DNA from: a virus
Lineage: Duplodnaviria; Heunggongvirae; Uroviricota; Caudoviricetes
IMG/VR virus record: IMGVR_UViG_2579778622_000016
Location: 1 to 20,747 of that record
Direction: 5' to 3' (one strand)
Length of the DNA: 20,747 nucleotides
Below, one piece after another: positions 1,874 through 19,410 of this stretch; positions within the stretch are counted from its first letter, which is position 1; the number at the start of each line of letters is the position of its first letter. Both the position numbers and the translations under genes were made by a program. Below the pieces are notes generated by a model, which was not told the origin of the DNA, searched no databases, and saw only the letters and a program-made list of their open reading frames with translations.

Positions 1874-2070
1874 TACTGGCTGCGACATTTTTGAATAAAA
1901 GCGTCGATATTTCGGCGCTCATAACGAACTACTTTTGCACTGAAACGAATTGGTGCCAGGATAGCCCGATGACGATGCTTAATATTCCACTCACATAGCG
2001 TTTTCTGTGTAATACCTAACTTTTGGCATACTTCATCCGGGGTGAGTAAATCGTCGGGTTTCTCGCTCAT
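1870..2070 (-). CDS. AlpA/Xis-family small HTH DNA-binding protein (putative excisionase or regulator)
   Basis: 66-aa ORF, SD GAGAGG 6 nt upstream. LLTPDEVCQKLGITQKTLCEW pattern typical of AlpA/excisionase HTH. Start overlaps the helicase stop (ATGA); stop shares a TTAA with the int stop. Confidence 0.55.
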   Translation of the reverse strand: MSEKPDDLLTPDEVCQKLGITQKTLCEWNIKHRHRAILAPIRFSAKVVRYERRNIDAFIQKCRSQY

Positions 2071-3467: not shown

Positions 3468-3751
3468 TAAGCCCCCTCTAGGTCAACATTGGGAAGCTTA
3501 TAGTCTGGTATGGTTTCATCCAATACCCTGGCGATAAAGTCATCTTTAGGGTAATAAATTACCGCTCCGAATTCTTCGCTTAAATAGTGACTTGAAGTAG
3601 CTGCGTTAGTATCGTTATCCCACGTTACAGGAACCAGACCTGTATGATCTTGTTTCCACGCAATAATAGGGTGGACCGTGTAAAGTGAACCATCATCGTT
3701 ATAAAGCACAACCCACCAACCGGGTTGAGCCGGCATATAATTATCCATCAC
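3467..3751 (-). CDS. Hypothetical phage protein (94 aa)
   Basis: ORF with GTG (3751) / ATG (3748) start behind SD GGAGGGG; stop overlaps the helicase start (TAATG). No recognisable motif. Confidence 0.5.
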   Translation of the reverse strand: MMDNYMPAQPGWWVVLYNDDGSLYTVHPIIAWKQDHTGLVPVTWDNDTNAATSSHYLSEEFGAVIYYPKDDFIARVLDETIPDYKLPNVDLEGA

Positions 3752-3775
3752 AATATCCCCTCCAGATTTTAGCTA
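3748..3775. repeat. Copy 1 of a 28-bp direct repeat (TCACAATATCCCCTCCAGATTTT-N-GCTA) carrying an SD and GTG start
   Basis: 27 of 28 positions identical to 5366-5393 (the first 23 bp are perfect); in both copies the repeat supplies the RBS and GTG of a minus-strand gene. Confidence 0.7.
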
Positions 3776-3806
3776 GCAGGGCGCGGGGTAATCCCGCGCA
3801 ATAATG

Positions 3807-4556
3807 TCAGATTAGATCGGTGTAGTAGGTGAAGTTGCCAAACTGCGGATGTGTCCAGCGCTTGCGGTTACCTTTCGGTGGTGTCGATTCGTTTAACAGC
3901 TTTTGAGCTGCTTGTTCGATCTCCGGAAGGTTAACGAGCAATCCCCGAACGCCGGTGTCTGAACGTACTGGTATCCTGGCGAAGCCGATCAATTTCCGGC
4001 ATGTTGAATCAGATAAACCTGTTTTCCATGCTGCTTTGCTGACGGGGACATATTCACCTTCAACATTAGATAAATTCGCTGGTGCGGCTGGTTGAAAATA
4101 GCCAGTTGCATCAAGACAGGCTTTCATTGTTGCTTCTGCTACGACGCGAGCAAGCTGGACGATGCCGTCGTTGATCTGAATTTTGGGTGTGGAAGGATGG
4201 GTAACAAGCGGTTGTACTTTACCTGTTTCCAGCTCACGCCAGCGCTTAACTACTTTATACCGGTCGTGGGCGCTATAACCAGTTACAAGCGTTGTGGAAA
4301 GGTCCTGATCGAGTAGTATTTCATCAATGACTTCGCGACCATTATAGACCTTCCTTTTGACTAAAAAGTCTTTATTTTCATGATGGTACATTTCTGTACT
4401 ATGAAAACCTAACTGCTCAAGAAGTGCTTTAATATCGCGCACGACTATTTTATGTTCTTTGCCGGTAAGTTCTGCAATCTCGCGACTGCTCATCATCGGT
4501 TGCTTACCAGTGCCTGCTAGTGTTAAAGTTGTTTCGAACATTGAAGTATTCTCCAT
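3807..4556 (-). CDS. Rha-family phage regulatory protein (antirepressor-like)
   Basis: N-terminal MSSREIAELTGKEHKIVVRDIKALLEQLG matches the Rha (Phage_pRha) signature as I remember it. The first ATG (4556) lacks an SD; the ATG at 4541 (GGAG upstream) may be the true start. Confidence 0.7.
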   Translation of the reverse strand: MENTSMFETTLTLAGTGKQPMMSSREIAELTGKEHKIVVRDIKALLEQLGFHSTEMYHHENKDFLVKRKVYNGREVIDEILLDQDLSTTLVTGYSAHDRYKVVKRWRELETGKVQPLVTHPSTPKIQINDGIVQLARVVAEATMKACLDATGYFQPAAPANLSNVEGEYVPVSKAAWKTGLSDSTCRKLIGFARIPVRSDTGVRGLLVNLPEIEQAAQKLLNESTPPKGNRKRWTHPQFGNFTYYTDLI

Positions 4557-4601
4557 TTAATAAAAGATGCGCTGGTAGCTGCAACTATCAGCGCGTTTTA
4601 T

Positions 4602-4778
4602 TTATTCATCCCACGGCTTGTTTGCAGCTTCCCTTGCAGCCTGCTGCGCAAAATAAATCAATTCAAAAGCTAACTGCTCTCCTTTCTCCAGCGAACTGAG
4701 AAGCCTTGCTGTTTCCAGCATGTCCGCGATATACCCGAAAATATCTGCCTGATGTAACTGCGTGATCTGAATAGCCAT
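4602..4778 (-). CDS. Small hypothetical protein (58 aa), not in the supplied ORF track
   Basis: Translated by hand: MAIQITQLHQADIFGYIADMLETARLLSSLEKGEQLAFELIYFAQQAAREAANKPWDE. SD GAGG about 9 nt upstream; first gene leftward of the divergent promoter/operator region. Confidence 0.35.
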   Translation of the reverse strand: MAIQITQLHQADIFGYIADMLETARLLSSLEKGEQLAFELIYFAQQAAREAANKPWDE

Positions 4779-4798
4779 AGCGTTAACCTCGTTTAGTT

Positions 4799-4877
4799 CT
4801 CATTGTGAGGACTAGATTTATTAGTACTCACAATGAGGCTTGAAGTCAACATGTTTGTGAGGCATGTTGTTCTCACA
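4799..4877. promoter_or_regulatory. Divergent promoter region with two palindromic operators (TGTGAG / CTCACA half-sites)
   Basis: Perfect 11-bp inverted repeat CTCATTGTGAG (4799-4809) / CTCACAATGAG (4827-4837), and a second pair TGTGAG (4856-4861) / CTCACA (4872-4877), just upstream of the RHH gene start at 4895. Confidence 0.5.
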
Positions 4878-4894
4878 CTTTCAAGGGATCATAT

Positions 4895-5224
4895 ATGAGC
4901 AAAAGAGACGACCCGCAGTTGAGGGTACGCATACCAGAATTACTAAAAGAGGCTTTGGAGAAGAAAGCACGAGCTAATAAGAGAACACTGACCTCTGAGA
5001 TCGTTAGCAGGTTGGAATCTACTATTCTTCAGGACAAATTACTTCATACATCTAGGGGGTTTGAGGAAGCTGCTGATGAGATTCTCATACTCAGGGATCT
5101 TCTCGAGAAACTTAAGACAACGTACCATCGAGAGCATCAGGCCGAATGGGTTTATGAAAACAAATACGAGCTTATTGAGGCGATGGAAAAACTTAAGAAG
5201 TTGCTAAATCCTGAGAATGAATAG
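4895..5224 (+). CDS. Arc/Mnt-type ribbon-helix-helix repressor with C-terminal coiled-coil (Mnt-like)
   Basis: 109 aa; N-terminal RVRIPELLKEALEKKARANKRTLTSEIVSRLE is a classic Arc-like RHH pattern; C-terminal heptad-like region. SD AAGGGA upstream. Confidence 0.7.
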   Translation: MSKRDDPQLRVRIPELLKEALEKKARANKRTLTSEIVSRLESTILQDKLLHTSRGFEEAADEILILRDLLEKLKTTYHREHQAEWVYENKYELIEAMEKLKKLLNPENE

Positions 5225-5369
5225 TGGATTCATCCTCTAAACTTTTACGTAACCGCCGGGTGATTTCGGCGGTTAGTGTTCTGTCGTTTTCTCTGGAAAT
5301 TTTTTCCAGTGCGTCTTTCAAGTCTTGCGGGATGCGTACCCGCAATTGTGGGTCATCACGTTTACTCAC
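5193..5369 (-). CDS. Arc-like ribbon-helix-helix protein (58 aa), paralogue of the 4895..5224 product
   Basis: Hand translation from GTG: (M)SKRDDPQLRVRIPQDLKDALEKISRENDRTLTAEITRRLRKSLEDESTIHSQDLATS; first 14 residues identical to the plus-strand RHH. SD GGAGGGG; GTG overlaps the VRR-NUC stop (GTGA). Not in the ORF track (under 60 aa). Confidence 0.55.
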   Translation of the reverse strand: MSKRDDPQLRVRIPQDLKDALEKISRENDRTLTAEITRRLRKSLEDESTIHSQDLATS

Positions 5370-5393
5370 AATATCCCCTCCAGATTTTTGCTA
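5366..5393. repeat. Copy 2 of the 28-bp direct repeat (see 3748..3775)
   Basis: 27 of 28 positions identical to 3748-3775; lies at the VRR-NUC 3' end and supplies the SD/GTG of the Arc-like gene. Confidence 0.7.
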
Positions 5394-5635
5394 TCCAGCA
5401 CCACCACGGTAAAGCCCAGTTTTCGCAGACGTTCATGTTCGCGCAACTGGTCGGCGCGTGGTGCTTTGCCGGGTGCTTTGCATTCAACGAAAACAAGACG
5501 GCCGCCGGGTAGCAGAACAATGCGATCCGGTACCGAGCGGCGACCGGGAGATACGAACTTAAAGGCCACACCGCCAGCCTTTTTTACTTCAGCGACGAGG
5601 TGCTTTTCGATTAGGTTTTCACGTTCATAGGCCAT
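5366..5635 (-). CDS. VRR-NUC domain nuclease (PD-(D/E)xK fold)
   Basis: 89 aa; PDRIVLLPGGRLVFVECK matches the VRR-NUC D...ExK core. Confidence 0.8.
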   Translation of the reverse strand: MAYERENLIEKHLVAEVKKAGGVAFKFVSPGRRSVPDRIVLLPGGRLVFVECKAPGKAPRADQLREHERLRKLGFTVVVLDSKNLEGIL

Positions 5636-5829
5636 TAGCTTTCTCCTTTCTGCTTTTTGCGTTTCTTCATGCAGATAGCGCAGTTCTCAGGATGGTCATG
5701 CCATTCATCAATCCTGATACCTGTGAACATCCATTTTCCGCATAGTGATATGGCTTCCCCCGAATTAAAGAAATGTGCTTTTTTTGACAGAGCGGGGAAC
5801 CCCCAACCCTTATTATCGATATTAGACAT
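5635..5829 (-). CDS. Hypothetical Cys/His-containing small protein (64 aa)
   Basis: ORF coupled to the VRR-NUC start; CGKW...HDHPENCAIC suggests a small metal-binding element; basic C-terminal tail. Confidence 0.45.
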   Translation of the reverse strand: MSNIDNKGWGFPALSKKAHFFNSGEAISLCGKWMFTGIRIDEWHDHPENCAICMKKRKKQKGES

Positions 5830-5865
5830 CGTCCACCTCCTTACGCTTTTCGCGCATGTTCTGCA

Positions 5866-6000
5866 TCAGACAAAAATCAAACCGACGTTCGCTTTGGCCC
5901 AGACCTGCATCGCCCGGTCGTACCCGCCGGACTGTTCAAGGCGCAAAGCCTCCCGCACAGTCCGGTAGTAAAGTAGATTGTCCCGGTATTTAAATGACAT
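5866..6000 (-). CDS. Small hypothetical protein (44 aa), not in the ORF track
   Basis: Hand translation MSFKYRDNLLYYRTVREALRLEQSGGYDRAMQVWAKANVGLIFV; lies directly downstream of an intrinsic terminator, so its expression context is unclear. Confidence 0.3.
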   Translation of the reverse strand: MSFKYRDNLLYYRTVREALRLEQSGGYDRAMQVWAKANVGLIFV

Positions 6001-6015
6001 ATATTTCGATTCCTG

Positions 6016-6041
6016 TAAAAAGCCCCTGACTGAGCAGGGGC
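6016..6041 (-). terminator. Rho-independent terminator (minus strand) downstream of the Bro-N gene
   Basis: Stem GCCCCTG (6022-6028) / CAGGGGC (6035-6041) with a 6-nt loop; the A-run at 6016-6021 on the plus strand is a U-run on the minus-strand RNA. Confidence 0.6.
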
Positions 6042-6052
6042 GAATTGAAGGA

Positions 6053-6817
6053 TTAACGAGGTAAAGTGGGGGGAGTATATCTGCCGATGCGGTCTTCTAT
6101 GGTCGGCAGAATGCACATGCTGTCGCTGAAGCGGTCATGCAACTGGTAAACCAGTTTCGAATCCATTTTTTCGAGAGCAGGCATTAACTGCGCTCGCCAG
6201 ATTTCGTTGATGCGCCGGAAGTTGTGACAGACGGCGCGGAGATTGTTGATGAACATTTCCTTCTCTGCGTCATTGATTGCTGTCTGAGCTTTCTGAATGC
6301 GTTTCGTGCTGCCATTCCGGTAGAAGCGTTCCTGAGCAGCAACAGCCTCATCCACGGTTGGATAGCACCCTACGTAAACGCTCTTCTCTCCGTCCCATGC
6401 ATAAGCCCTGTACGGATTGTATTTGCTCCGGTGATGGTAAATCATCTTCGGCAGACATTCCCTGTGCGGCGCCAGTATCGTGGAGGACTGCGGAACAGCG
6501 GTTTCTTTCTCGATAAGGTCAAGCACCCAACGGCGGAATTCTTTTGCTACTGGCGTTGTTGCGAACATCGCTACCAGGTGGGCACCGCGGAGGGAGAAAA
6601 TGCGGCGCGAGGCCTGTAAATTCCCCAAGGTAACCATTTTGATTACCTCGGACATGCCGAGAGTGAACTCATCCGTGTTGCGGGTGTAAATGTTAGTTAC
6701 GCTGCGAGCATCAGAATATTCTAGCGCGGTAGCCAGGGTAGCCGCAGTAAACCACTGCTTGCCGTTGTGTTCGACCGTTTCGAGAATGTGGGATTTGAAG
6801 ATGAGTTGAGTACTCAT
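6053..6817 (-). CDS. Bro-N domain protein (phage antirepressor family)
   Basis: 254 aa; N-terminal FTAATLATALEY...NLQASRRIFSLRGAHLVAMFATTPVAKEFRRWVLD fits the Bro-N pattern. SD AAGGA upstream; terminator-like hairpins on both sides. Confidence 0.75.
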   Translation of the reverse strand: MSTQLIFKSHILETVEHNGKQWFTAATLATALEYSDARSVTNIYTRNTDEFTLGMSEVIKMVTLGNLQASRRIFSLRGAHLVAMFATTPVAKEFRRWVLDLIEKETAVPQSSTILAPHRECLPKMIYHHRSKYNPYRAYAWDGEKSVYVGCYPTVDEAVAAQERFYRNGSTKRIQKAQTAINDAEKEMFINNLRAVCHNFRRINEIWRAQLMPALEKMDSKLVYQLHDRFSDSMCILPTIEDRIGRYTPPTLPR

Positions 6818-6967
6818 AGTCTTATGTCCTTGCTGATTTGTTCAGATTGCCCTGTGTTCAGCAGGGCGGTCGGGTACTTGAACACCGCAGCAAGCCGGCC
6901 CGTATCCTTAGCCTTGCGGCTGTTTTTCGGTATACGCGCTACCCGACCATATCTGAAAAATGGACAT

Positions 6968-6997
6968 AAAAAAAATCCGCATGACTGACGGGTGCGG
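6968..6997 (-). terminator. Rho-independent terminator (minus strand) downstream of the DNA polymerase gene
   Basis: Stem CCGCA (6977-6981) / TGCGG (6993-6997) with an 11-nt loop; on the minus-strand RNA it is followed by U8 (plus-strand A-run 6968-6975). Confidence 0.55.
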
Positions 6998-7061
6998 TTT
7001 CCGCTTGCTGTGGTGTGTTCAGCACCATGAAGCGGAATATACCTATTGGTCATCGCGGATG

Positions 7062-9125
7062 TCAATCTTTCCGGTATCTGTAAGATTCGAATCCTCCGGC
7101 GTTTAGTGGAATGCTCGTGGCCCAGTCAGGAACGGTTGCCAGTAACTGGCTGAGATGTTCTGCTGAGTAATCGGGTGAGTCAGGGGCCTCACTTATAATT
7201 TCATCGTGTACCGTCAGCACAATGCTGTAACCGGCATCTTCGATAAGCGGCATGTTTCCGGCCAGAACGTCGCGGGCGGCCGCCTGGGTGACGTTCTCTA
7301 CCAGCTTTCCGCCGTAGGTTTTGAGTCGTTGCCATTTACGCGAATAAGAGTTAACACCCATATAGGTGATATCCCCTTTTTCGATAACCGGAGACGGGTA
7401 GCATACAGCGCGTCCAGATGGCAGCTGTATGCGCAGCCACGCGCCATCACGTTGAATTTTAAGATAGCCGCAATACAATGTTTTTTGCGGTGTGGCGATT
7501 GCTGTGCGGACAGTGCGCTCCAGCTCGTACCAGAAATCGCAGGTAGCCGGGTGCGCCCTGCGCCACAGGCGCTTGAGCGAGTCACATGCGATGAATACAC
7601 GCTCGGACAGGCCAAAGGTCGACTTACGTTTAACCGATTCGTCGTACCAGCTTTTCGCCTCGCGGATAACATCGCGGGGAATGTTTGGCAGTGCGGCGTT
7701 CGCCAGCTCGTCGAGATCGAGACCGTAAACCAGAGCAAAAGTGATGAAAGCCGATACACCACCTCCATAACCCAGACCGAGTTCCATGACTTTACCGATC
7801 TGACGCATGTGTTTATCAACATCATCTGGTGCAATATCGAAAGCTTTTGCATACGCCAGTTTATATAAGTCCGGACCCGTTCCGGCGTCGTACTCTCTGA
7901 ATGCATTCAGTTTCCATTCCTCTCCCGCCAGCCATGCCAGCATACGGCCTTCAATGTTTGACAAGTCACTTACCACCAGTTTTTTGCCTGTTGGCGCGAT
8001 AATGCAGCCACGTAACGCTGAACTGGTTAGTTCCATGATATTGTCAAACAGCAGGTCTGCACATCCGGCTTTCAGTGCTTCGATGCCTTCGTCTATTTGT
8101 TCCTGTTTTAGTGAAGGGCGGGGAAGGTTCTGGGGCTGGAATAGCCGTCCGGCCCAACGACCGGTACGTGACGCCCCGCAGAACTGTAGCGTACCGCGTA
8201 AGCGCCCGTCGTGGCTTACGCCTTTCATTAGTGCCTTGTATTTACTGGTGCTGGTAGTACTGGCCTGCAGGCGGATAGCCAGCAGTTCTTTCACGGCAGA
8301 TGGTAAATTGGGGTCGGCAATACGACGTTCCAGAGTACTGCGTTGCATGTGTGGTAGCTCCACACCGTAGGATTCAACAATGTGCTTAATCAACGCGTCT
8401 CGTTGTGTGGCTGCCTGCACTTCGCCATCAGTCATTTCCTGTGTACGCTTTGCCAGGCGCTTTTGCTCCTGGTCTACCGCTTCGATCGCAGCGCGCGCGA
8501 GTTGCATGTCCATGCAGACGCCCCGGTCGTTGATCTGCTGATCACGATGCCAGAGCGCCAGCTCTGTCCCCTGATAATTCCACTTCGGCAGACGTTTATA
8601 GACTTCGCGCATTGCCTCGATATCCAGTCCGGCGTAAGCAACAAAGCGCCGCCATTCTTCCGGGTGGGTTTTGCTGGTGGCACGGCGCAGTTTGCTATTT
8701 TTCGGACGTGGCTTACAGAACAGCTGGATCAGCGCCTTACCTTCTTTGTCCTTCGCTTTGTCTTGCGGGACGCCTAGTACTTCGCAGAGTTCCCCCAGAG
8801 ACCCCGGGAGACCGTGCGCCAGCGCCTGCACCATCGTGTCGCGCCAACGTTCGACTGGCGGTGCCAGTCGCGGCATTGCATAACGCAGAACGGTGCGGTC
8901 GAAGTGAGAGTTATGGAAATAAAGCAGGGTTTCAGGGTCTGCGATTGCTTCGTATAAGCCGTGTGGAATACCACCACCGGCAGTGATATCCCACACGTTT
9001 ACTGGCCCGTCGTTGATAGCCCATGCGAAAAGCATCACTTCAACGCCTTCGGCATACGCATGGGTACCGTTGTTGATCGGAATGTCACAATAGGTTTCCA
9101 GGTCGCCCCATAGTATATTGGACAT
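7062..9125 (-). CDS. Family-A DNA polymerase with 3'-5' exonuclease domain
   Basis: 687 aa; Exo I GDLETY, motif [13 protein letters not shown], motif [13 protein letters not shown], motif C VHDE. SD GAGGA 6 nt upstream. Confidence 0.9.
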
Positions 9126-9186
9126 AAAATATCCTCATATGGTATATGGTTAAATGCTAGATATCATGAATTAAAGGAGACAACTA
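9126..9186. promoter_or_regulatory. 61-bp divergent intergenic region with tandem TATGGTA/TATGGTT (operator-like) and both RBSs
   Basis: TATGGTATATGGTT at 9138-9151 resembles the TATGGT/ACCATA motifs found next to the CI-like repressor gene; flanked by the PolA start (minus) and the 9187 gene start (plus). Confidence 0.35.
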
Positions 9187-9876
9187 ATGACTGTGGGTAA
9201 TAAGAGACAGCCTAATGGATTACCTGAATATTATTGTCACCGTGGTAACGACATAAAAGATGCGATAGTTCGGGATTTTATTATTCAGCCTGTTGCACAC
9301 CTGAAACTTATTACTGGACAAACTAAAACCAGTTATTCCGGTTATCCGTTAACCGATCAGTACTATTGTTTTTCATTTAAAAAACGCTCTGATGAAAATT
9401 GTACAGGGGCTTTTTTCTGTGGTAGAGATGTTGCAAATGATTTCATTCGGCGTATCGGTTGTACAGAGCTGCCGTTATTTAATCCTATGAAATCGGATAC
9501 CAGTGCAGCAATAGAACGTTCCGGTTCTGGCTCAGGTAGTTCCGGTATTACTGTCAAGCCAAATGCTGACAAAAAGCTATTTATAGACGCAGCTCGTCTG
9601 TTAATGACGCTGTGGGATTCAACAAGTAAGGGACAAACCCCACTGGCGTCGGTTCTTAATGAAGCAATTTCTGGTGGTATAGATAAACCTCCAGAAATTA
9701 GACATGTAGTGGCGGTTAATACAATGTTGGGTAACACAAAAAATACTTTAACTGGCCTGCTGGATAAAGCAAGAGCGAAGTATCCTGATGTGTTATTCAG
9801 AGATTTTGATTTCACGCCTCTTAACGAGATTGTAAAACGTTCAAAATCATATAATAAGCATCCCCCTTGTTATTGA
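9187..9876 (+). CDS. Hypothetical two-domain protein (229 aa), opposite-strand accessory gene in the replication operon
   Basis: Strong SD AAGGAGA 7 nt upstream; visibly AT-richer than the flanking genes; Cys/His-rich N-domain, SGSGSGSSG linker, C-domain. No family recognised. Confidence 0.6.
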   Translation: MTVGNKRQPNGLPEYYCHRGNDIKDAIVRDFIIQPVAHLKLITGQTKTSYSGYPLTDQYYCFSFKKRSDENCTGAFFCGRDVANDFIRRIGCTELPLFNPMKSDTSAAIERSGSGSGSSGITVKPNADKKLFIDAARLLMTLWDSTSKGQTPLASVLNEAISGGIDKPPEIRHVVAVNTMLGNTKNTLTGLLDKARAKYPDVLFRDFDFTPLNEIVKRSKSYNKHPPCY

Positions 9877-10511
9877 GTATCAGACACTGTATTGGTAGGA
9901 AGGCCTATCATTTCATTTAATGTCTCTCGATGTACTGCTGGTGCTAAAGGGACTGGCGGTGCGTCTGTTGGAAGCAGTTCTTTAGCTTCGGGCCATACAT
10001 CCAGTAATCGTTTTACTGTCCGAACTTTATTTAGAGCCGCGCTGACGTTCTGTATGATTTCGGTTTCATCACTTTTAATTTGTGTGTAGAGAGCATCAAA
10101 GCTATAAAACTCCGTTACCAGAGGATCTTCGCCAAGTAGAGTAAATTCTGCAGGTGCTATTTTATTAATATGCTCGGGGGCTCCTGATTCATAACCTCTG
10201 TAGTTGCCATTGAAATAAATGTTTGCTCTGGCTCCAGCCAGATTGAGATATATGCAGCAATCTTTTCGAATTAAAGAACTATTGGTTTTTAATGAATCAG
10301 GGATTTTTGTTACCATGGATTCAATCTTTTTTAGATTTTTTAATATTTCAGCTTCTTTCTCTACGCCCCCGATAGCTGCAAGCCGAACACGTTCGGCCCA
10401 TTCAACACGAGCAGCTCGTAGTGCTGATTTACGTTTGGGGATTCCCGCTTTCTCAAGTGCGTTATTGATGATTTGAGTTTTAAGGTGATTAGTTAATACG
10501 GGCTGTGACAT
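9870..10511 (-). CDS. Hypothetical protein (213 aa)
   Basis: ORF with SD GAGGG upstream of the ATG at 10511 (the track's longer form to 10541 would run through a GC hairpin). 3' end overlaps the 9187..9876 gene by 7 bp. Family not recognised. Confidence 0.55.
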   Translation of the reverse strand: MSQPVLTNHLKTQIINNALEKAGIPKRKSALRAARVEWAERVRLAAIGGVEKEAEILKNLKKIESMVTKIPDSLKTNSSLIRKDCCIYLNLAGARANIYFNGNYRGYESGAPEHINKIAPAEFTLLGEDPLVTEFYSFDALYTQIKSDETEIIQNVSAALNKVRTVKRLLDVWPEAKELLPTDAPPVPLAPAVHRETLNEMIGLPTNTVSDTQ

Positions 10512-10529
10512 TATTCTTTCCCTCATGAG

Positions 10530-10554
10530 ATCCCCCAGCATGTAGCTGGGGGAT
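10530..10554. other. Perfect 10-bp GC-rich hairpin (ATCCCCCAGC-ATGTA-GCTGGGGGAT) between two co-directional minus-strand genes
   Basis: Perfect inverted repeat; on the plus strand it is followed by GAATATTTTT (terminator-like for rightward transcripts), on the minus strand it lies in the 5' leader of the 213-aa gene. Confidence 0.4.
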
Positions 10555-10562
10555 GAATATTT

Positions 10563-11111
10563 TTAAATTAGTGCTTCAGCATCAGCACCTTCGCTGATAT
10601 CGTCGAAATCGTCAGCGCTTGCCACTCCGCCGCCAGCGAATGCATCGCCGTCTCGCAGGAACTGGACTCCGCCGAGTGAGGCATTAATGCGTTTACCGAA
10701 ATTATTGTCCTGTGCCCAGATATCGATAACGGCGTTTACATAGCACCCTGCATAGGGACGTCCATCAGCCTGAATTAGTGGCGAACGATCGCGATCAAGA
10801 ACAGCTGGGCGCGCTTTGTTAGCAGCGTTCAGGAAGAAATTGCCGGGAAAGCCTTCATACTCTGCTTTTTCATCACCATCATGCAGGCACAGATTGAGTT
10901 TTTTCTCCAGCTGACTATAAATGGGCTCCCACTTCTCTCCCCATTTTTCCTTCGCTACCTGCTTCATAGCTTTACGGATTTCTTCCAGTTGTGGGTGTTT
11001 GGGAGACATTAAAAATACTGCGGAGAAACGCGGATCGCCTTCGCCGTTTACAGTTTTAGCTTCAAACAGAGACGGGAAGGCCAGGCGAACATTGTTCAGC
11101 TTCAGTTTCAT
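10563..11111 (-). CDS. DUF2815-like protein, putative phage ssDNA-binding protein
   Basis: 182 aa; N-terminus MKLKLNNVRLAFPSLFEAK and the acidic C-terminal tail DDFDDISEGADAEALI fit what I recall of DUF2815/gp2.5-like SSBs. SD AAGGAAA upstream. Confidence 0.7.
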   Translation of the reverse strand: MKLKLNNVRLAFPSLFEAKTVNGEGDPRFSAVFLMSPKHPQLEEIRKAMKQVAKEKWGEKWEPIYSQLEKKLNLCLHDGDEKAEYEGFPGNFFLNAANKARPAVLDRDRSPLIQADGRPYAGCYVNAVIDIWAQDNNFGKRINASLGGVQFLRDGDAFAGGGVASADDFDDISEGADAEALI

Positions 11112-11126
11112 GGGTATTTCCTTAAA

Positions 11127-12428
11127 TCAGATGAGGTCTGCGGTTAGCGTATCGTCGGATACGTCGTCGAAATCATTTACAGGGTTGATATTGAGTGCGG
11201 GGCGTGGGTCTGACTCGGGAACGACGGTGGGTTTTCCATCAGCTCGTGTTATCAGTGCCTCGACTTTTGACCAACGGCGCGGACTGGCCTTTTTGATAAG
11301 TTTTTCGGCTTTTGTGGGGCTAATAAGTTTAAAGTCGAATACTTCTTCAGTTTTGTACCTGAACTGGTCCTTCAGAAGTGCGCGAGCTGCCTCTTCATCA
11401 CTCCAGGCCCGGTTACCTTGTTTTCCTGTTACCAGTTTAAACCCCGGTACCGGATGTCCGGCATTGAGTTCATTGTGAACCCGGTCCCGTACTGCCTTTA
11501 GCCAAGATTCAATAAAGTCGGCCTGGCTATAGATCTCTGCAAGCTGCTCAATGGTTAACAGAGGTACACGTGCGCTGGCATTGGTGATTATTTCGCTGAC
11601 AGGCTTTGTCAGATCTTCAAAATCGCTGGCCGCTGTTTGTAAATGCTGCATTTTCTGGGCAGTGCAAATAGCTTTTGCTTTACAGAAGCGGCACTGTTTT
11701 TCTCCAGGTATGAAGTTTTCCAGCGGTAGTGTCTCAATGCCTTCGCATTCAGCAATATTGAGAACAAGGATCGCACTGGTTGCGGCCTCCAGCGCCCGTT
11801 CACCGAAAGACTGAAGTTCCTGTACGGTTAACGACCATTCTGAAACGTGGTTGAGCCTTGGTTGGTGAATAAATAATCTTACAGTTTCAAAGTCATACAG
11901 CATGCTGAATTGTTCAAGCGCACCCAGAGCATACAGTTGTAGTTGCTCATTTTGTTCTGCATCAATGCGGACGCCTTTGCCATATTTCAGGTCGTGGATT
12001 TGTAATTCGTTACCAGCGATGATTATGCCGTCGGCAGTTCCGAAAGATTCTTCCACACCCGTTATATGTGAGAAATCAACACGTTGTTCAACCAATAGTT
12101 CATTATTCTTTGCAAGAGTCCAGACCGTATCAACATACCGGCCGACGGCTTCGACCATTTCATCATCCACCTGTGGGCCAGATTTATCATCAGGATTTTC
12201 GCGAAGGGGGTATGAGCCGAGAAACATAGAAACATTGCATCCGGCGTAGTGTTCCGGGTGGCTTTGCCTGTTTCGTAGAACTTTTTCAGCAAGCGCGTGC
12301 GCTGCAGTGCCCTCGATTGCAAAAGTTGTTTCTTTATCCGGTTGTGTGGCCTCCAGCGCCAGACTTCCTGGGCAGCGCATCCATCGATGCGCTGATGATG
12401 GAGAAAGTTGTGCATGAACGTCTGGCAT
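11127..12428 (-). CDS. DUF2800-like PD-(D/E)xK nuclease (Cas4/RecB-like) with C-terminal Cys cluster
   Basis: 433 aa; [16 protein letters not shown]-terminal signature, [10 protein letters not shown] cluster, acidic tail [23 protein letters not shown] 6 nt upstream. Confidence 0.8.
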
Positions 12429-12430
12429 GA

Positions 12431-13360
12431 TTAACCCTCCAGTGCTTTTTCAGCCAGGGTGATTACTTCAGCGAGATTTTCATCCGTTACTTCACCAAGT
12501 TTCCTGGCTCCCTGTTTTTCCAGAATTGCAATAGCTTCTGCCCGGTAACCCCCTTTTGCTAACTGGAGGATCAACCCTTCAGCTTGTTTGCGTAGTGCCG
12601 CGAAATCAATTGTATGGTCATCTTTGGCGTCATTATTCTGGCTGGAATTTGCTGCGTCTCTGCGTGCAAATTCTTCCTGCAGCTGAAGGTACTCAACACG
12701 GTTGATCTCGATATGGCCTTTTTTAAGCATCTCGTTCAACTTGCGTAAGGTGTGGAGTTCACTGGCTGCTGTGCCGGATACATTTTTGACGTAAAACGGC
12801 CCCGTGCGTTCTCCATCTTTGTTACTGGCCTTTTTCGGCTTAACTTCATCACGCCCATCCGCAGGTGCATCAAGTAGCTGCTCGGCAAAAGCACGTCGCT
12901 CGCCGATAGTTGGCAGGTCGTCCCAGAACTTAAGAATGTTGCGGGACAGGTCCAGAAGAGCGGGTTTATGCAGTGCCCTGGCTCGTTTGACGCCCTGCAA
13001 TGTGCTGTCGAGAGCATCAATCTGAACTACTCGTTTATCACCTTCAGCATCACGGTAGGCAACAGCACGTTGCAGCATGTCTTCTGTGATTTGCTGCGGT
13101 ACCGGGTAGAACGCTGCCAGTGCGATAACGTCGCTGAAATCCAGATCATCCAGTGTCATCGCCGCTTTATTTTCAGTTTCAGTTGCTGTTTCAGTTTCAA
13201 CAGCTGTTTCAGATGCTGTATCCCGACATTCCTGTACTTGTGAAATCGTGTCAGGATGCATAACAATACCTGACGCCATTGTGCGGATAAGACGTTCAAG
13301 CAGCACATTATGTTGCGCCAGAAGTTTATTATTAAGTTCGAGACTGGTTTCTAAGCTCAT
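12431..13360 (-). CDS. Hypothetical phage protein (309 aa) with internal acidic Thr/Glu/Ala repeat
   Basis: SD GAGGG upstream; start overlaps the upstream stop (ATGA). Contains [14 protein letters not shown] encoded by a GTTTCAG-type tandem repeat at 13171-13218. Confidence 0.6.
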
Positions 13361-13817: not shown

Positions 13818-14020
13818 GCCGTTTCCTCATTCAGTTCACTTTGGTGGTTCGGCGGCTTCGACTTGTATCAGTAGACAGTGCTTCGCCGCACCCCAAAGGG
13901 AACTTACTGACCCGTATTGCCGACATCCTGTCCCGCCACGGTCCCGACGCATGGTTTAGAGTCGCGCCGTTCGACTTGATGAGGGATAAATTACTATGTT
14001 TATTGTATTACGTAAACCAC

Positions 14021-14055
14021 AAATATGGTATTTATGGTTGCAAAAATACCATATT
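14021..14055. promoter_or_regulatory. OL-like operator cluster (TATGGT / ACCATA half-sites)
   Basis: TATGGT at 14024-14029 and 14033-14038, inverted ACCATA at 14047-14052, inside an AT-rich stretch of the 323-bp non-coding region left of the repressor gene. Confidence 0.4.
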
Positions 14056-14140
14056 ATTGATATTTAAGTTAATTTAGTTGGTAGACAATCGGGGCGGGCG
14101 GTATGGCGGGAGGGCTTTTTCGCCCTCTTTCTGGATGGGA

Positions 14141-14764
14141 TTATCTTTTGCGGCGGTAAATACGATGTTCAATCATGACCCCTACGATCTGTAAGGGGAC
14201 ATCTGCACTTCGTAGCACGGGATAGTCGGGATTCAGGGGGACCAGTTCAAAATCATCAACGCCGATACCCAACGGGCGGTATTTTTTGAAAGTGGCCTCA
14301 TACCCGTTGTTCTTTGCAACGACGAATTCGCCAGGCATGGGGCATAAATCCGGGTCAATTATTACAATATCGCCTTCCTTAAACTCCGGTTGCATACTGT
14401 CACCATCTATCCGCAGGGCGAAGCAGGACTCAGGTACGTCGGAATCCGCGAGAACGTATTCCATATTTCCATCCATGTCCGTAGCGTCTTTTGCTTCCGT
14501 TAGCGCACCGGCCTGTACGTAACTGAGGATCGGGATGCGGCGGGTACTTATTTCCGCCAGGGGCATTATATTCCTGCCATTTAAAAGCCAGTCGGGACTG
14601 CATTTCAGTGCCTTTGAAAGCTCTATGATGTTGCGGGGCTTCCGGGTCTTTCCGCTTTCAATAGTCTCAATGGATTGCTGGCTGACCCCCGCGATTGCTG
14701 CAACTTCTGTTTGTGTCATCCCGAGTTCTGTACGGCGTGCTTTAAAGCGTTCTGCAAGTGACAT
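14141..14764 (-). CDS. CI-like prophage repressor (N-terminal HTH, C-terminal S24 LexA-like peptidase)
   Basis: HTH LGMTQTEVAAIAGVSQQSIETIESG; S24 motifs GDSM (Ser) and VVAKNNGYEATFKKY (Lys). SD AGGGGG upstream of the ATG at 14764; the track's extension to 14830 lacks an RBS. Confidence 0.85.
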   Translation of the reverse strand: MSLAERFKARRTELGMTQTEVAAIAGVSQQSIETIESGKTRKPRNIIELSKALKCSPDWLLNGRNIMPLAEISTRRIPILSYVQAGALTEAKDATDMDGNMEYVLADSDVPESCFALRIDGDSMQPEFKEGDIVIIDPDLCPMPGEFVVAKNNGYEATFKKYRPLGIGVDDFELVPLNPDYPVLRSADVPLQIVGVMIEHRIYRRKR

Positions 14765-14880
14765 GGTGTACCCCCTGATTCCTGATTTTTTGCTCTCCCT
14801 TATTAATACAATTTTTGTTGTAGTTGACAAACATCATTTATTGTCGCTAAATACCACATAAATTGTAGGAGACAATAATC
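14765..14880. promoter_or_regulatory. Divergent cI / cro promoter-operator region (OR-like)
   Basis: TTGACA at 14824-14829; inverted repeat TTATTGTC (14838-14845) / GACAATAA (14871-14878); AAATACCACAT (14850-14860); ATTGT-AGGAG-ACAAT palindrome whose centre is the cro SD. Confidence 0.5.
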
Positions 14881-15090
14881 ATGACACTTGCTACCCGAGT
14901 AAAAAACCAGCGTAAGGCTCTTGGCCTGACGCAGGTTATGCTGGCAGAACGCACAGGGATTAGCCAGCAGGCCATTAACCGCATTGAAAGCGGCCTTATA
15001 TCCCGTCCCCGTTATCTGCTGGAAATAGCTGTTGCCCTGAACTGCGACCCTAACTGGCTGTTGCATGGTACTCCCGCGGATAAGACGTAA
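14881..15090 (+). CDS. Cro-like HTH (XRE-family) regulator
   Basis: 69 aa; HTH LGLTQVMLAERTGISQQAINRIESG; SD AGGAG 9 nt upstream; divergent from the CI-like gene. Confidence 0.75.
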   Translation: MTLATRVKNQRKALGLTQVMLAERTGISQQAINRIESGLISRPRYLLEIAVALNCDPNWLLHGTPADKT

Positions 15091-15093
15091 CTT

Positions 15094-17238
15094 ATGGCCC
15101 AGATCAATCTCTCATACGGCCGGGAACTGGTAGACAACCTTCCTGTGCCCTGTACTGATGCCGATTTTAACCGGACATTTAAGCGTGTTAAAAAGTGGGC
15201 TCGTGCTATCGGCGCAACCAAACAGGATACAAAAAGCCAGCTTAACGCCAAAAAAGCGCGTCTGCCCTACATCTGGCACGCAATGAAGGACGTCACCAAA
15301 GGTCGTAACGCTGCTAATGCGGGCAACCGTGATGTGCTCTTCATGGATATGGACGGCTGTAACGCGCCTGCATGGGGCGCTTTACGCGATGCGCTGGCCT
15401 GTTTCTCATGTTTCACCTATTCAACGCCAAGTCATCTGCACCCCACTGCAAACGGGGAACATCGCTGGCGTATCTGCCTGGAGCTGAGTCGCCAGGTCAC
15501 GCCCGAAGAGTACAAGCGTCTTGGCCTTGCGGTTGAAAACTGGCTGATGGATTGTATCAGCCTGCTGGACGATTACACCGTCAAGTGGGACCACAGCGTT
15601 TACAACCCGGACCATATGGTTTTTGCCCCTGATGAAAAGGCCATCTTTGAACGTTTTACCGGGGAACCTGTTGACGTTGATATCCTGTTGGCCAGCGCAC
15701 CGGAAGTTACCATCCCTGAAAAAGCATCTTCCACAGACCGCGATGATTTGTCACGCGCTGTCGAACTGAACGGCATCAGTCAGGAAACTTTTGACGACCT
15801 GCGCGAAGTGATGTGGCATCCGGCTGTACTGGCGGACGCTGAGCCGGGTTGCGGTAAATACCATAGCTGGGCGGCGATGGGAAATCGTCTGGCATGGTTT
15901 AAGGGAACCGACTGGGAAGACGCAGCCCGTCAGCTTTGGGTCGACTGGTCGATAGCGGGTGGTGGCGATGGCATCAGCGCTGAACATAAATGGGACAGTA
16001 ACCAGCTTACCGCCGAACGAACCGGTTACCAGGCCATTTTCGCCCATGCGCAGAAAGCAGGGGTCGCTAACCCCGCGACCGACCGTATGCGCGGTTTTGT
16101 CGCCGGTGCGAATGACTTCGACGAGTTGCCACCGGAAAAACCGGAGCTGCCAAAGTCCAGACCGCACACAGGCGGCTACGGTAAGCCGGGAAAGTTCATC
16201 ATTGAAGGGATGGTGCCGCACGGGGTGACCATGCTCTATGGAGCTTCGTCATCGTTCAAATCCTATGGCGTTATCTCCATGCTCTGCCGTGTGGCGACGA
16301 AAACTCATCGCTGGGGCGGGCGTAACCTCAAAGGTGGCGCTGTTCTGTATGTTGCCGCTGAGGGTGGCAGCTCCGTTATGCCGCGTGTCGGCGCATGGGC
16401 GGATAAGTACAATGACGGTAAGCCACTGGATTTGTTCTACACCCTGCCACTGGCGGTTGATCTCTCTGTCCCCGCAAACGTCACAAAGATGGTAAACGAG
16501 ATTAAGCGCATAGCGTACCACACCGGCGAACCTGTCCGGCTTGTGGCCGTCGACACGCTGTCGCAGTCCATGATGCAGGGCGAGGAAAACAGCGCCAGTG
16601 ATGTGGCAAAATTCATGGCGGGCGCAACCAGGGTGTTCACCGAAACGGGCGCAGCGGTGATTATCGTTCACCACAGCGGCAAAGACAGCAGTAAGGGGAT
16701 GCGTGGCTCTTCTGCTGCCTTTGCTAACGCCGATGCGGTCATTCGCGTGGAACGCATCGGCGACGCGGTGAACCTGATTAACGAGAAACAGCGTACCGGT
16801 CCGGTACAGCCGACCCGCGGTTACATGGTACCGACAGTGCAGCTTCCTGACGACGTTATCGCGGCTAACGAAACGTACGATGATGAGTATACCAGCACTG
16901 AAGGGGAAGTATATGACCCTGTAAGGCTTACCACCGAGCGCGTGTTTGAAGATGCACCAATGGCGGAGATCACCCCACTGCTGGTGGATAAGGGCGACGG
17001 GAATACCAAAGGCAGCAGCGATGAATCCTGGGTATGGGAAAAGCTGGAGGCCTCCGGCGGCAGCATCAACCGTTCTGCGCTTCGCGAGTTATGGAAGGAT
17101 GAAACCGATAAAAGTACCGGTCAGTTACGTGCGGTTCTGGGGCGCATGAAAGAGAAGTATTACATCGTTGAGCGCGACGGCGTAATCAGGGATCCGCTAT
17201 GCAATGGCGTACCACCTGGAGGGGATGAAATTGCTTAA
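15094..17238 (+). CDS. Replication protein: N-terminal AEP primase-polymerase domain fused to a RecA-fold (AAA_25/RepA-like) helicase/ATPase
   Basis: 714 aa; AEP motifs VLFMDMDG (DxD) and TPSHLHP (SxH); C-terminal P-loop region GASSSFKS, Walker-B-like LVAVDTL and VIIVHHSGKD. Confidence 0.75.
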   Translation: MAQINLSYGRELVDNLPVPCTDADFNRTFKRVKKWARAIGATKQDTKSQLNAKKARLPYIWHAMKDVTKGRNAANAGNRDVLFMDMDGCNAPAWGALRDALACFSCFTYSTPSHLHPTANGEHRWRICLELSRQVTPEEYKRLGLAVENWLMDCISLLDDYTVKWDHSVYNPDHMVFAPDEKAIFERFTGEPVDVDILLASAPEVTIPEKASSTDRDDLSRAVELNGISQETFDDLREVMWHPAVLADAEPGCGKYHSWAAMGNRLAWFKGTDWEDAARQLWVDWSIAGGGDGISAEHKWDSNQLTAERTGYQAIFAHAQKAGVANPATDRMRGFVAGANDFDELPPEKPELPKSRPHTGGYGKPGKFIIEGMVPHGVTMLYGASSSFKSYGVISMLCRVATKTHRWGGRNLKGGAVLYVAAEGGSSVMPRVGAWADKYNDGKPLDLFYTLPLAVDLSVPANVTKMVNEIKRIAYHTGEPVRLVAVDTLSQSMMQGEENSASDVAKFMAGATRVFTETGAAVIIVHHSGKDSSKGMRGSSAAFANADAVIRVERIGDAVNLINEKQRTGPVQPTRGYMVPTVQLPDDVIAANETYDDEYTSTEGEVYDPVRLTTERVFEDAPMAEITPLLVDKGDGNTKGSSDESWVWEKLEASGGSINRSALRELWKDETDKSTGQLRAVLGRMKEKYYIVERDGVIRDPLCNGVPPGGDEIA

Positions 17239-17244
17239 TTTTAC

Positions 17245-17535
17245 CAATTTGCAGAAAGCTACAAATTTGCATAAAAATGCAAAAATAAAATATATGCAAT
17301 TTATTTGCATAAATAGTCAGCGCAACAAAAATTTTAAGCAGCAAGCGCAACACGATGCGCAACAGCGCAACAAAAAATGTTGCGCCGCTGATTTTAAAGG
17401 CTTTTTTAACCGCAACAAGCGCAACACGACGGCTAGCGTAGTGGCGCAACACAATACCCCTCTCCCCCCTTTAGGGGGGAGGGGTTTGTTGCGCCCGAGC
17501 CGTTGCGGTTTTTATTCATTTAAATGCATATGCAA
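17245..17535. repeat. Iteron-rich putative replication origin
   Basis: GCGCAACA at 17320, 17345, 17357, 17365, 17419, 17444 and inverted TGTTGCGC at 17378, 17487 (variants at 17410, 17501); AT-rich TTTGCAT / ATGCAAA repeats at 17246-17315; central GC hairpin 17457-17484. Confidence 0.55.
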
Positions 17536-17561
17536 TGCTGGTGAATGATAAGGGGGTGCAG

Positions 17562-18260
17562 ATGCTGACAGCAATCAACAACGAAAAAATTGTCATCGCA
17601 AGGGACGCGCAGAAACCGGGAATTTTCGCCTGCCCGGAATGTGGTGAAGTTGTCACCCTGCGGAAAGGTTCGGTGAAAGTTCACCATTTCGCCCATCGCA
17701 GCACCACATCCTGCGGTTACGGGAAAGGCGAATCTGAGTTGCACATGGATTTGAAAATGCAGGTCTATGACGCGTTGAACGCGCATCGTGAGGTGGAATA
17801 TGTTGCGATGGAGGTCGCAGTCGGTGATGTTCGTCCCGATGTGCTGGCGATTATTCGGGGTCAGAAGGTTGCTTTTGAGATTCAGGTTAGTTCGCTGAGT
17901 ATTGAAGACCTCTATCGCCGCACGGTTGCGTACGCAGCTCAGGACATTGCGATGATCTGGATCCTGCACTGGCCTGAAGGTACTGCACTGGACCGGCTTT
18001 ATCACCCTGCATCATGGGAGCGATGGTTACATACTTGCGGAATGGCAACTCTGTACTTCTGGGCGGGCGATGGCTGGGTCAGGCCAGTGCGTCTGGGAAA
18101 CCGACAACATGGATTACAAAGAGCACCTCGTGCCCATCTGGTTGATGATTTCGAACCAAAGCGAACAGGCGGGTGGATTAAAGGTGATTTTCTGATACCT
18201 GCTCGCTTTATCTGGAATCGTGTGCGACGGCAAAAACGTAGAGGTCAGAGCTATGCGTAA
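17562..18260 (+). CDS. CoiA-like family protein (putative nuclease)
   Basis: FACPECGEVVTLRKGSVKVHHFAHRSTTSC...GESELH...RPDV matches the CoiA N-terminal pattern as I recall it. SD AAGGGGG before the ATG at 17562. Confidence 0.75.
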   Translation: MLTAINNEKIVIARDAQKPGIFACPECGEVVTLRKGSVKVHHFAHRSTTSCGYGKGESELHMDLKMQVYDALNAHREVEYVAMEVAVGDVRPDVLAIIRGQKVAFEIQVSSLSIEDLYRRTVAYAAQDIAMIWILHWPEGTALDRLYHPASWERWLHTCGMATLYFWAGDGWVRPVRLGNRQHGLQRAPRAHLVDDFEPKRTGGWIKGDFLIPARFIWNRVRRQKRRGQSYA

Positions 18261-18687
18261 TATTCAACAGGTTTTAGAGCGCTGGGGTGGCTGGGCTGCC
18301 AATAGCAACACCACAGTGAGCTGGGCTCCAATAGCGGCGGGATTTAAAGGGCTGGTAGTCAGCAGCCTGCCTGGCAGGCTGAGTTGCTGCGACGACGATG
18401 GCCTGATTATCGATGCTTGCGTCTGTCGGCTGCAGCAGGTCCGTAAGCCTGAGGAACTGGACGTCATTATGCTGTACTACGTCTACGGGTTAAGCAAACG
18501 TGAGATAGGACGGCGGCGTCGATGTTCTGAAGGATTTATCCGCCAGCAGTTGCAGGTAGCTGAGGGATTCATTGAGGGGTGTCTCTGCATGCTGGGTGTG
18601 AGCCTTCAGATGGATCCTGAGGTCGAAATTCAAAGGGATGAAAAAAGTATTAGTGCGCTACGCAAAAACTGCGCTACGCTGGTATGA
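18253..18687 (+). CDS. Phage antitermination protein Q (phage-82/21-type Q family)
   Basis: MRNIQQVLERWGGWAANS...CCDDD...YYVYG resembles remembered Q-family proteins. ATG at 18253 overlaps the CoiA-like stop; followed by a long non-coding spacer and the holin gene. Confidence 0.7.
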   Translation: MRNIQQVLERWGGWAANSNTTVSWAPIAAGFKGLVVSSLPGRLSCCDDDGLIIDACVCRLQQVRKPEELDVIMLYYVYGLSKREIGRRRRCSEGFIRQQLQVAEGFIEGCLCMLGVSLQMDPEVEIQRDEKSISALRKNCATLV

Positions 18688-18895
18688 GTTGAATTTCTGA
18701 CCTCAACGAAGAGCTCCAAATTATTGGGGGTTTTTTGTACGCACAACAGGTAATAGTATTGAACCCGCAGACCTCGCGGAACTGGTGAAAGGTGCCGCGC
18801 AGTGCTCTTATCGTTGTGGTGAAGCTCAATGGCGAGCTAGCAGATAGGCGACAGTGAAAATACTAGTCATGTATCTGACCGCCGCGCGTACTGCA

Positions 18896-18944
18896 ATCGG
18901 CAGCGCACCGATGGAAGCCGGTTCGATTCCGGCCGCCACAACCC
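18896..18944 (+). other. tRNA-like fragment (anticodon-arm-like hairpin, canonical T-arm, 7-nt acceptor 3' strand); not a complete canonical tRNA
   Basis: ATCGG-CAGCGCA-CCGAT hairpin (18896-18912), T-arm GCCGG-TTCGATT-CCGGC (18917-18933), then CGCCACA-A-CCC. No D-arm or acceptor 5' strand at the right distance. Confidence 0.3.
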
Positions 18945-19061
18945 AAACTGAGCCGTAGCCACTGGCTGTCCTGAACTCCTCAGTGATAGTTACGCTGCGG
19001 CCTTCTTTTTCCCCTTCCTAATACAAGAACTACGCAATCCGTTACTGGCGGAGGCGTTGCT

Positions 19062-19277
19062 ATGAAATCAATGGACAAAATCTCAACTGGCATTGCCTAC
19101 GGAACATCCGCTGGTAGTGCGGGATACTGGTTTTTACAGTGGTTGGATCAGGTCAGTCCGTCACAGTGGGCTGCTATTGGTGTGCTGGGGAGTCTGGCAC
19201 TGGGCTTTCTGACTTATCTGACGAATCTGTACTTCAAGATAAAAGAGGACCGTCGCAAGGCGGCGCGGGGAGAGTAA
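19062..19277 (+). CDS. S21-type pinholin (class II holin) with dual-start motif
   Basis: 71 aa, [30 protein letters not shown]...: near-identical to my memory of phage 21 S; two in-frame starts (MKSM / MDKI); SD GGAGG upstream; two TM segments. Confidence 0.85.
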
Positions 19278-19410
19278 TTCAATGGAACATAATAATGAAA
19301 AATCCAGAGAGCACTCTGGAAACAGCAAACATTATTCCATTGCTCATTCATTCGGCGGCTTTCGTGATGTAGTCGGACAGGGTGCTGAGAGAGAACAGGA
19401 GAGTAATACA

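Follow-up and report, generated by a model that had tools for sequence, protein, structure and literature searches.

A lambdoid E. coli prophage carries, directly downstream of its replication gene, a short spacer crowded with copies of one 8-bp word. This raises the question of whether the spacer is where replication of the prophage starts and which protein reads the word. We analysed the whole stretch of DNA that contains it, 20,747 nucleotides of IMG/VR record IMGVR_UViG_2579778622_000016 (hereafter the window). The region comprises, in order, a CI-like repressor (14141-14830, minus strand), Cro (14881-15090), a 714-aa Rep that combines initiator, primase and helicase in one protein (15094-17238, plus strand; assigned with Pfam, PHROGs and AF2/Foldseek), a 323-bp non-coding spacer (17239-17561), a CoiA-like nuclease gene (17562-18260, plus strand) and antiterminator Q. 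The CoiA-like gene forms the right boundary of the spacer and lies outside the putative origin. Judging from the comparison of related loci, the spacer at 17239-17561 is very probably the replication origin of the prophage, with the 8-bp words serving as iterons recognised by the winged helix at the C-terminus of Rep.

The closest match is a prophage in E. coli LH50-c (NZ_CP100500, hereafter L001), with 99.8% identity over the 501 bases queried (17150-17650), a stretch present in only 2 of 5426 complete E. coli genomes. This near-identical element encodes terminase, portal, capsid and tail genes. A search of cultured-phage DNA with 17150-17650 gave no match, and tblastn of Rep against 50,697 cultured phage records found no place covering at least 80% of the protein. 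Lambda-like prophages normally borrow the host replisome, and a polymerase set of their own is unusual. The leftward early operon of the window (2067-13360, minus strand) has its own replication and recombination set, including a family-A DNA polymerase (7062-9125, minus strand), a DUF2800/PD-(D/E)XK protein (11127-12428) and a DUF2815 protein, together with VRR-NUC and SNF2-related proteins in the near-identical prophage. A TIR-domain protein annotated inside the same operon of L001 (9339-10082) may be a defence or counter-defence cargo gene.

An array of 8-bp words and a conserved hairpin

The original prediction described an 8-mer occurring about ten times within 190 bp, and the count is borne out. 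The word GCGCAACA has eight exact copies within 17320-17494, six on the plus strand (17320, 17345, 17357, 17365, 17419 and 17444) and two on the minus strand (17378 and 17487). With the degenerate copies CCGCAACA (17410, plus) and CGTTGCGG (17501-17508, minus), the array comprises ten sites in 189 bp (17320-17508) and begins 82 bp past the rep stop codon. Over both strands of the whole 20.7-kb window there are nine copies of GCGCAACA against 1.23 expected, a number reached by none of 100 shuffles. The sole copy outside the cluster (13311-13318, minus strand) lies within a 309-aa gene (12431-13360) and fits the chance expectation of 1.23 per window.

The array is framed and divided by AT-rich DNA. 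Ahead of it, as predicted, lies an AT-rich block with TTTGCAT/ATGCAAA-type repeats (17239-17318, 15-35% GC), which consists of ATTTGCAnAAA/TATGCAAT repeats, with three copies of ATTTGCAnAAA and inverted ATGCAA copies. This block is conserved across the iteron classes described below (alignment A4), and is a candidate unwinding or bending region, or a candidate set of host-factor sites. The left iteron cluster (17320-17385) contains the plus-strand copies at 17320, 17345, 17357 and 17365 and the minus-strand copy at 17378; the copies at 17365 and 17378 make up the perfect palindrome GCGCAACA-AAAAA-TGTTGCGC (17365-17385) that had been noted from the sequence. Between the diverging iterons at 17378 (minus) and 17410 (plus) lies a central AT-rich element, GATTTTAAAGGCTTTTTTAA (17390-17409, 20% GC), which divides the array into two clusters. 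It is nearly invariant in 14 loci covering all iteron classes (alignment A4) and is the candidate site of first melting. The right direct iterons (17410-17451, plus strand) are CCGCAACA at 17410 and GCGCAACA at 17419 and 17444, with the conserved spacer ACGGCTAGCG (17429-17438) between them. Beyond a GC-rich hairpin follow the right inverted iterons (17487-17508, minus strand), namely TGTTGCGC at 17487-17494 and the degenerate CGTTGCGG, and then a right AT-rich block, TTTTTATTCA ... CATATGCAATG (17509-17537), conserved in all classes (A4). The proposed arrangement of direct copies to the left and inverted copies to the right of the hairpin thus holds broadly, except that the inverted copy at 17378 lies to its left.

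The left AT-rich block also contains TTATGCAAA twice on the minus strand (17266-17274 and 17304-17312), one mismatch from the relaxed DnaA box TTWTNCACA and kept as ATTTGCATAAA in most relatives. The pair could be a host DnaA site or mere AT-rich repeat sequence, and we did not count it as evidence. A motif scan of the spacer region found no IHF or GATC motifs, a sigma-70 promoter scan gave no site within the spacer, and Rfam returned only sub-threshold chance matches.

The hairpin (17459-17484) has arms at 17459-17469 and 17474-17484 and a TTTA loop, and its 11 pairs, one of them G-T, match the stem of roughly 11 bp with one G-U that was foreseen. The inverted iterons on either side lengthen it into a palindrome spanning 17443-17495, which folds as single-stranded DNA with -23.1 kcal/mol (z -6.4; none of 200 shuffles folds as well). 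In an alignment of 11 distinct sequence variants, whose register was set by hand from the loop outward and so favours pairing, 89% of the stem cells are paired in relatives against 76% in shuffles, and none of 500 shuffles reaches 89%. Six of the 11 stem pairs are altered on both sides, and the covariation score of 0.37 exceeds both the shuffles (0.15) and every slid register. Since pairing is kept through compensatory changes, the structure of the hairpin is under selection.

The Rep protein and the word that tracks it

Rep is composed, in order, of an AEP primase domain, a helical PriCT-like region, a RepA-type P-loop helicase and a winged helix. Pfam places AAA_25 (RepA family, RecA-type) on residues 368-532 with an E-value of 3.9e-28, and the protein matches PHROGs helicase-primase families. 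In a PDB sequence search the helicase weakly matched RSF1010 RepA (1g8y, E 0.037), and PDB searches with the N-terminal part and with a C-terminal profile gave only noise. Pfam found no family for the N- and C-terminal parts of Rep (residues 1-360 included) up to an E-value of 5, so we took their folds from AF2 models and Foldseek, whose E-values are weak (0.003-0.5) with consistent match lists.

For residues 1-355, modelled with 13 homologues (mean pLDDT 75), the best Foldseek matches were cyanophage S-2L PrimPol, the LigD polymerase domain and Prim-PolC, with weak E-values (3e-3 to 6e-2) that agree with one another. Residues D85, D87, S113, H114 and H116, which make up DxD and SHxH motifs, are invariant in 13 diverse homologues. 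Residues 219-332 are helical in the model, and PF08707 (PriCT_2) is found in Xenorhabdus homologues. Given the AEP-like fold, the invariant motifs and the AAA_25 match, the name primase-helicase, which had been given to the upstream gene from its sequence, is a fair one. At the C-terminus, residues 620-714 modelled with 25 homologues give the order H1-S1-H2-H3-S2-S3 with a core pLDDT of 85-92, and Foldseek matched this model to winged-helix domains only, including the MCM C-terminal WH, the APC2 WHB and BlaI/MecI. The predicted winged helix spans residues 640-700 (17011-17193, plus strand), and its predicted recognition helix H3, TGQLRAVLGRMKE, spans residues 675-687 (17116-17154, plus strand).

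Genomes, viral contigs and metagenomes together yielded 16 related, non-redundant loci, and in each of them rep is followed by roughly 300 bp of non-coding DNA. Between groups of loci the repeat positions all switch word together while the scaffold stays conserved (alignments A1 and A4); the switch in concert takes in all five left-cluster positions and both right inverted sites. The word is GCGCAACA in the window, L024, L008, L003, L036 and Arsenophonus L034; GCGGGACA in L002, L026 and L029; and G(C/T)GTGACA (GyGTGACA) in L025, L028 and Xenorhabdus L035. Single loci have CGGTGACA (L031), GCGTGGCA (L030), GCGTTACA (L032), GCGTAACA (Serratia L033) and GTGTGCCA (L012). Seven 5-base cores occur among these words. 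The scaffold common to the iteron classes consists of GATTTTAAAGGnTTTTTTAA, ACGGCnAGCG, the hairpin with its TTTA loop, GAGCCG, TTTTTATTCA and CATATGCAATG; the non-iteron scaffold elements of the window lie at 17390-17409, 17429-17438, 17497-17502 and 17509-17537. Concerted change at ten dispersed sites in a conserved frame is the signature of one reader with altered specificity.

The part of Rep that changes with the word is the winged helix. Over residues 521-600 the Rep of the window is 95-97% identical to that of all four close relatives. Over residues 641-714 it is 67-85% identical to L008 and L003, which have the same word, and only 20-38% identical to L002 and L012, which have other words. 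We then asked how well the identity of each region separates same-word from different-word pairs among 105 locus pairs. The AUC was 0.81 for H3, reached by one of 2000 label permutations, although the loci are related, so that the permutation test overstates independence and the AUC statistics are indicative rather than exact. For the other parts of Rep the AUC was 0.76 (winged-helix H1-H2), 0.54-0.64 (N-terminal parts) and 0.42 (helicase), and the winged helix is the only part whose similarity tracks the iteron word. The value for H3 is 0.81 and not 1.0; distant relatives from Arsenophonus and Xenorhabdus have a word in common with other loci despite divergent winged helices.

A natural helix swap illustrates this co-variation. 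Between L029 and L028, identity is 80-95% in the N-terminal regions and linker and 82% in the helicase but drops to 33% in H3, and the two use different iterons (GGGAC and GTGAC, respectively). L029 and L002, both GGGAC, have H3 helices that are 80% identical. Two H3 positions, the residue after a conserved [LF]R and the residue before an invariant R, follow the core of the word: A/T and G/S go with GCAAC, R and N with GGGAC, and Q and R/W with GTGAC. The exception in the GTGAC group is the Xenorhabdus locus, which has T and K at these positions. The co-variation points to Rep as the probable reader of the words, and not to the effect that binding would have.

The spacer as a probable origin and the alternatives

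What would binding do? As in iteron origins generally, a cluster of short words far above chance lies next to AT-rich elements (17239-17318 and 17390-17409). We then propose a model in which replication would start within 17239-17561. Upon loss of CI, pR would transcribe cro and rep, yielding one chain in which a flexible linker joins the AEP primase, the hexameric helicase of RepA type and the winged helix. The winged helices of Rep would bind the ten iterons, in two clusters around 17390-17409, and binding would distort and melt the AT-rich DNA. The helicase would then load itself, the AEP domain would prime, and the family-A polymerase of the phage (7062-9125, minus strand) would extend. 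The GC palindrome and the inverted iterons would form a hairpin that either signals loading or priming on single-stranded DNA or marks the end of the rep transcript.

It is tempting to speculate further that this is a compact, reprogrammable origin for an all-in-one initiator-helicase-primase, in which a few H3 residues set the 8-bp word through the GCAAC/GGGAC/GTGAC code, so that a single scaffold would serve seven or more naturally occurring Rep-origin pairs, each orthogonal to the others. The GC palindrome with its inverted iterons would then be a double single-strand initiation signal like ssiA/ssiB of RSF1010, at which the AEP domain of Rep would prime both strands after the RecA-type 5'-3' helicase has loaded itself. 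To our knowledge, such a loading route is undescribed for SF4 helicases. Taken as a whole, this extended proposal is tentative and somewhat doubtful.

A copy-control or autoregulatory locus would show the same co-variation of word and helix, which proves recognition only. The array could thus titrate Rep in the manner of P1 incA, or be an autoregulatory or handcuffing site, while the origin lies elsewhere, for example inside rep. Its place downstream of the initiator gene matches that of incA, which in P1 lies downstream of repA, and both lambda O and N15 repA contain the origin inside the initiator gene. We nevertheless consider a pure control locus unlikely. No second iteron cluster was found in the window or in the 40.5 kb of L001, each of which has only one isolated copy of the word outside the cluster, so a separate iteron origin would have nothing to build from. 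Moreover, like origins, the array comes with AT-rich elements and a palindrome.

The hairpin suggests a second alternative, in which the spacer is mainly transcriptional: an intrinsic terminator of the pR-cro-rep transcript, analogous to tR2 before Q, with repeats that tune termination or expression further downstream. Within 14000-19400 the hairpin ranks first among terminator-like sites, its 11 pairs are followed by the T-run tail TTTGTTGC, its non-Watson-Crick stem pairs are T.G in the plus sense, and it lies between rep and Q. However, the T-run is short in the window and missing in L033 and L035, where the hairpin itself is retained, and a terminator leaves ten words that co-vary with the DNA-binding helix of Rep unexplained. 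Hence a mainly transcriptional spacer seems improbable. In L033 and L035, two inverted iterons per side lengthen the palindrome to arms of about 20 bp. This makes a DNA-level role of the hairpin, for example as a loading or priming signal by analogy with RSF1010 ssiA/ssiB, at least as likely as termination. Terminator and origin roles are not mutually exclusive, and part of the conservation of the hairpin, as the best terminator-like site of the region, may serve transcription.

That the words are sites of a protein other than Rep, such as a repressor or a partition or packaging protein, is very improbable. CI and Cro were considered as readers and rejected: the AUC was 0.45 for the CI protein and 0.49 for the cro region, and the window and L028 have CI proteins that are 99% identical and cro regions that are 98% identical, with different words (GCAAC and GTGAC). 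The downstream gene varies as well, since the CoiA-like gene is swapped for other genes in several relatives that retain the iteron array. With the words switching together in 16 relatives and following H3, not CI or Cro, and with the winged helix of Rep alone tracking them, the suggestion in the original prediction that the 8-mers act as sites for the Rep protein is well borne out by co-variation.

The same pair of loci permits a separate observation. Comparison of window regions 14141-15090 and 17011-17508 with L028 shows that the recognition helix and the word differ between two elements whose CI and cro are near-identical. A mosaic joint therefore falls within the 3' portion of rep, and immunity reassorts independently of replication specificity.

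Finally, RefSeq lists a CDS over the repeats, and the frame is open in several relatives; yet a real 107-aa gene at 17225-17548, with the repeats a by-product of a repetitive protein, is scarcely credible. The annotated product is hypothetical protein WP_097312914.1 (107 aa, 17225-17548, plus strand), and its 114-aa version begins at 17204. When the window is compared with 11 relatives, substitutions within the frame favour no codon position (for example 12/13/15 and 19/13/19), unlike those in a control stretch of rep (7/3/55 and 5/7/51, with 80-90% at the third position). The ATG is replaced in L008 and L003, L025 has a stop codon at the start, L002 has an internal stop, L026 is frameshifted, and L012 does not preserve the frame. 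Neither Pfam nor PHROGs returned a family match, and inverted repeat copies make no sense as codons. The CDS is thus most likely an artefact over conserved non-coding sequence, in agreement with the earlier suspicion that the 114-aa ORF is probably no gene.

Significance and comparison with known systems

Together, our results assign a probable origin and its initiator to a replication module that occupies the slot of O, P and ori in lambda, and that is common in prophages of Salmonella, E. coli, Erwinia, Serratia, Xenorhabdus and insect symbionts. Although an origin at this place is unsurprising in principle, it is well supported, and the relatives offer a useful natural series of matched changes in helix and DNA word for the study of winged-helix recognition, of incompatibility between co-resident prophages and of orthogonal replicon design. 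The analysis also corrects a RefSeq CDS that is most likely spurious, and indicates where the APSE phages of aphid symbionts probably have their origin.

In some relatives, APSE-1 P3 among them, the N-terminal primase domain of Rep is fused to a VapE/VirE ATPase and not to RepA. These relatives have a different, SaPI-like array right after the gene, in which two to three direct 9-bp repeats are followed by an AT-rich spacer of 50-80 bp and then by three inverted copies. In APSE-1 (L037, NC_000935) the array lies at 3330-3610 with the 9-bp repeat GTAACAACC; the others lie at 6282-6440 (L004), 6272-6422 (L014) and 6322-6424 (L015). The APSE-1 'hypothetical protein P4' (3445-3666), which is annotated over the repeats, may be spurious.

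The domain order of Rep is that of the AEP-PriCT-(RepA/VirE/MCM)-WH proteins of the PrimPol-PV1 supergroup, for which origin recognition by the C-terminal WH has been predicted (Kazlauskas et al. 2018, PMC5862659). Rep has the AEP DxD and sxH motifs and a RepA-family P-loop helicase followed by a C-terminal winged helix, and here too RepA-type and VirE ATPases replace one another behind a single primase domain. That survey concerned proteins only and described no origin ('iteron' occurs 0 times; PMC5862659), whereas the present locus pairs a protein of this domain order with a putative iteron origin.

In their working, the closest parallels may be the SaPI and PICI replicons, SaPIs being pathogenicity islands of Staphylococcus aureus. 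The winged helix at the C-terminus of SaPI Reps binds iterons that directly follow rep; these number six to twelve, are 5-6 bp long and lie in opposite orientation on the two sides of an AT-rich centre, and in SaPI5 a primase is fused to Rep (PMC9371898). Here, too, a helicase-initiator is predicted by AF2 and Foldseek to end in a winged helix, and iterons just downstream of rep are opposed around an AT-rich centre (17378 minus, 17390-17409, 17410 plus). The differences are an AAA+ (SF3/MCM-like) 3'-5' motor in SaPIs and a RecA-type AAA_25/RepA motor here, iterons of 5-6 bp and of 8 bp, the conserved GC palindrome inside the present array, and a satellite without virion genes as against a complete lambdoid prophage, as seen from the virion genes of L001. 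Because its helicase core is AAA_25 and not AAA+, the prophage system would be SaPI-like in its working but not a homologous member.

The alpha protein of satellite phage P4 is likewise a single polypeptide, with primase and helicase parts and a DNA-binding domain at its C-terminus whose target iteron is an octamer. The P4 octamer is TGTTCACC (compared with TGTTGCGC on the minus strand here), its iteron cluster crr adjoins the alpha gene, and ori and crr are two separated clusters that are both needed. P4 alpha has a Toprim-type primase and an SF3 helicase where Rep has AEP and RepA-type domains, and P4 has two clusters where the window and the 40.5 kb of L001 have one. The prophage system is thus no homologous member of the P4 family either. 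A literature search on the P4 iteron word returned only unrelated primer sequences.

In RSF1010, an account of oriV presents its inverted repeats ssiA and ssiB as hairpin priming signals (PMC8567376). The likeness extends to a RepA-type hexameric helicase and an AEP-related primase, and to an origin that brings together iterons, AT-rich DNA and inverted repeats; by analogy, the palindrome of the prophage might, as a hypothesis, likewise act in priming. RSF1010 distributes these functions over three proteins (RepA, RepB' and RepC), with 20-bp iterons read by RepC, whereas a single chain would carry them all here. In the archaeal plasmid pRN1, ORF904 is described as combining prim-pol, helicase and winged helix, with a stem-loop just past the ORF904 gene as the origin (PMC4234260). 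ORF904 differs from Rep in its SF3 helicase and archaeal host, and the pRN1 origin has no iteron array.

The Eru classification of replication regions in Stx phages makes no mention of iterons or of the protein type of Rep. Compared with lambda itself, the module sits in the same genomic slot, to the right of cro and before Q, and its spacer likewise combines iterons with an AT-rich region. In lambda, the origin lies inside the O gene and host DnaB is recruited through P; in the prophage described here, the probable origin lies outside the gene and the phage would supply its own helicase, primase and polymerase.
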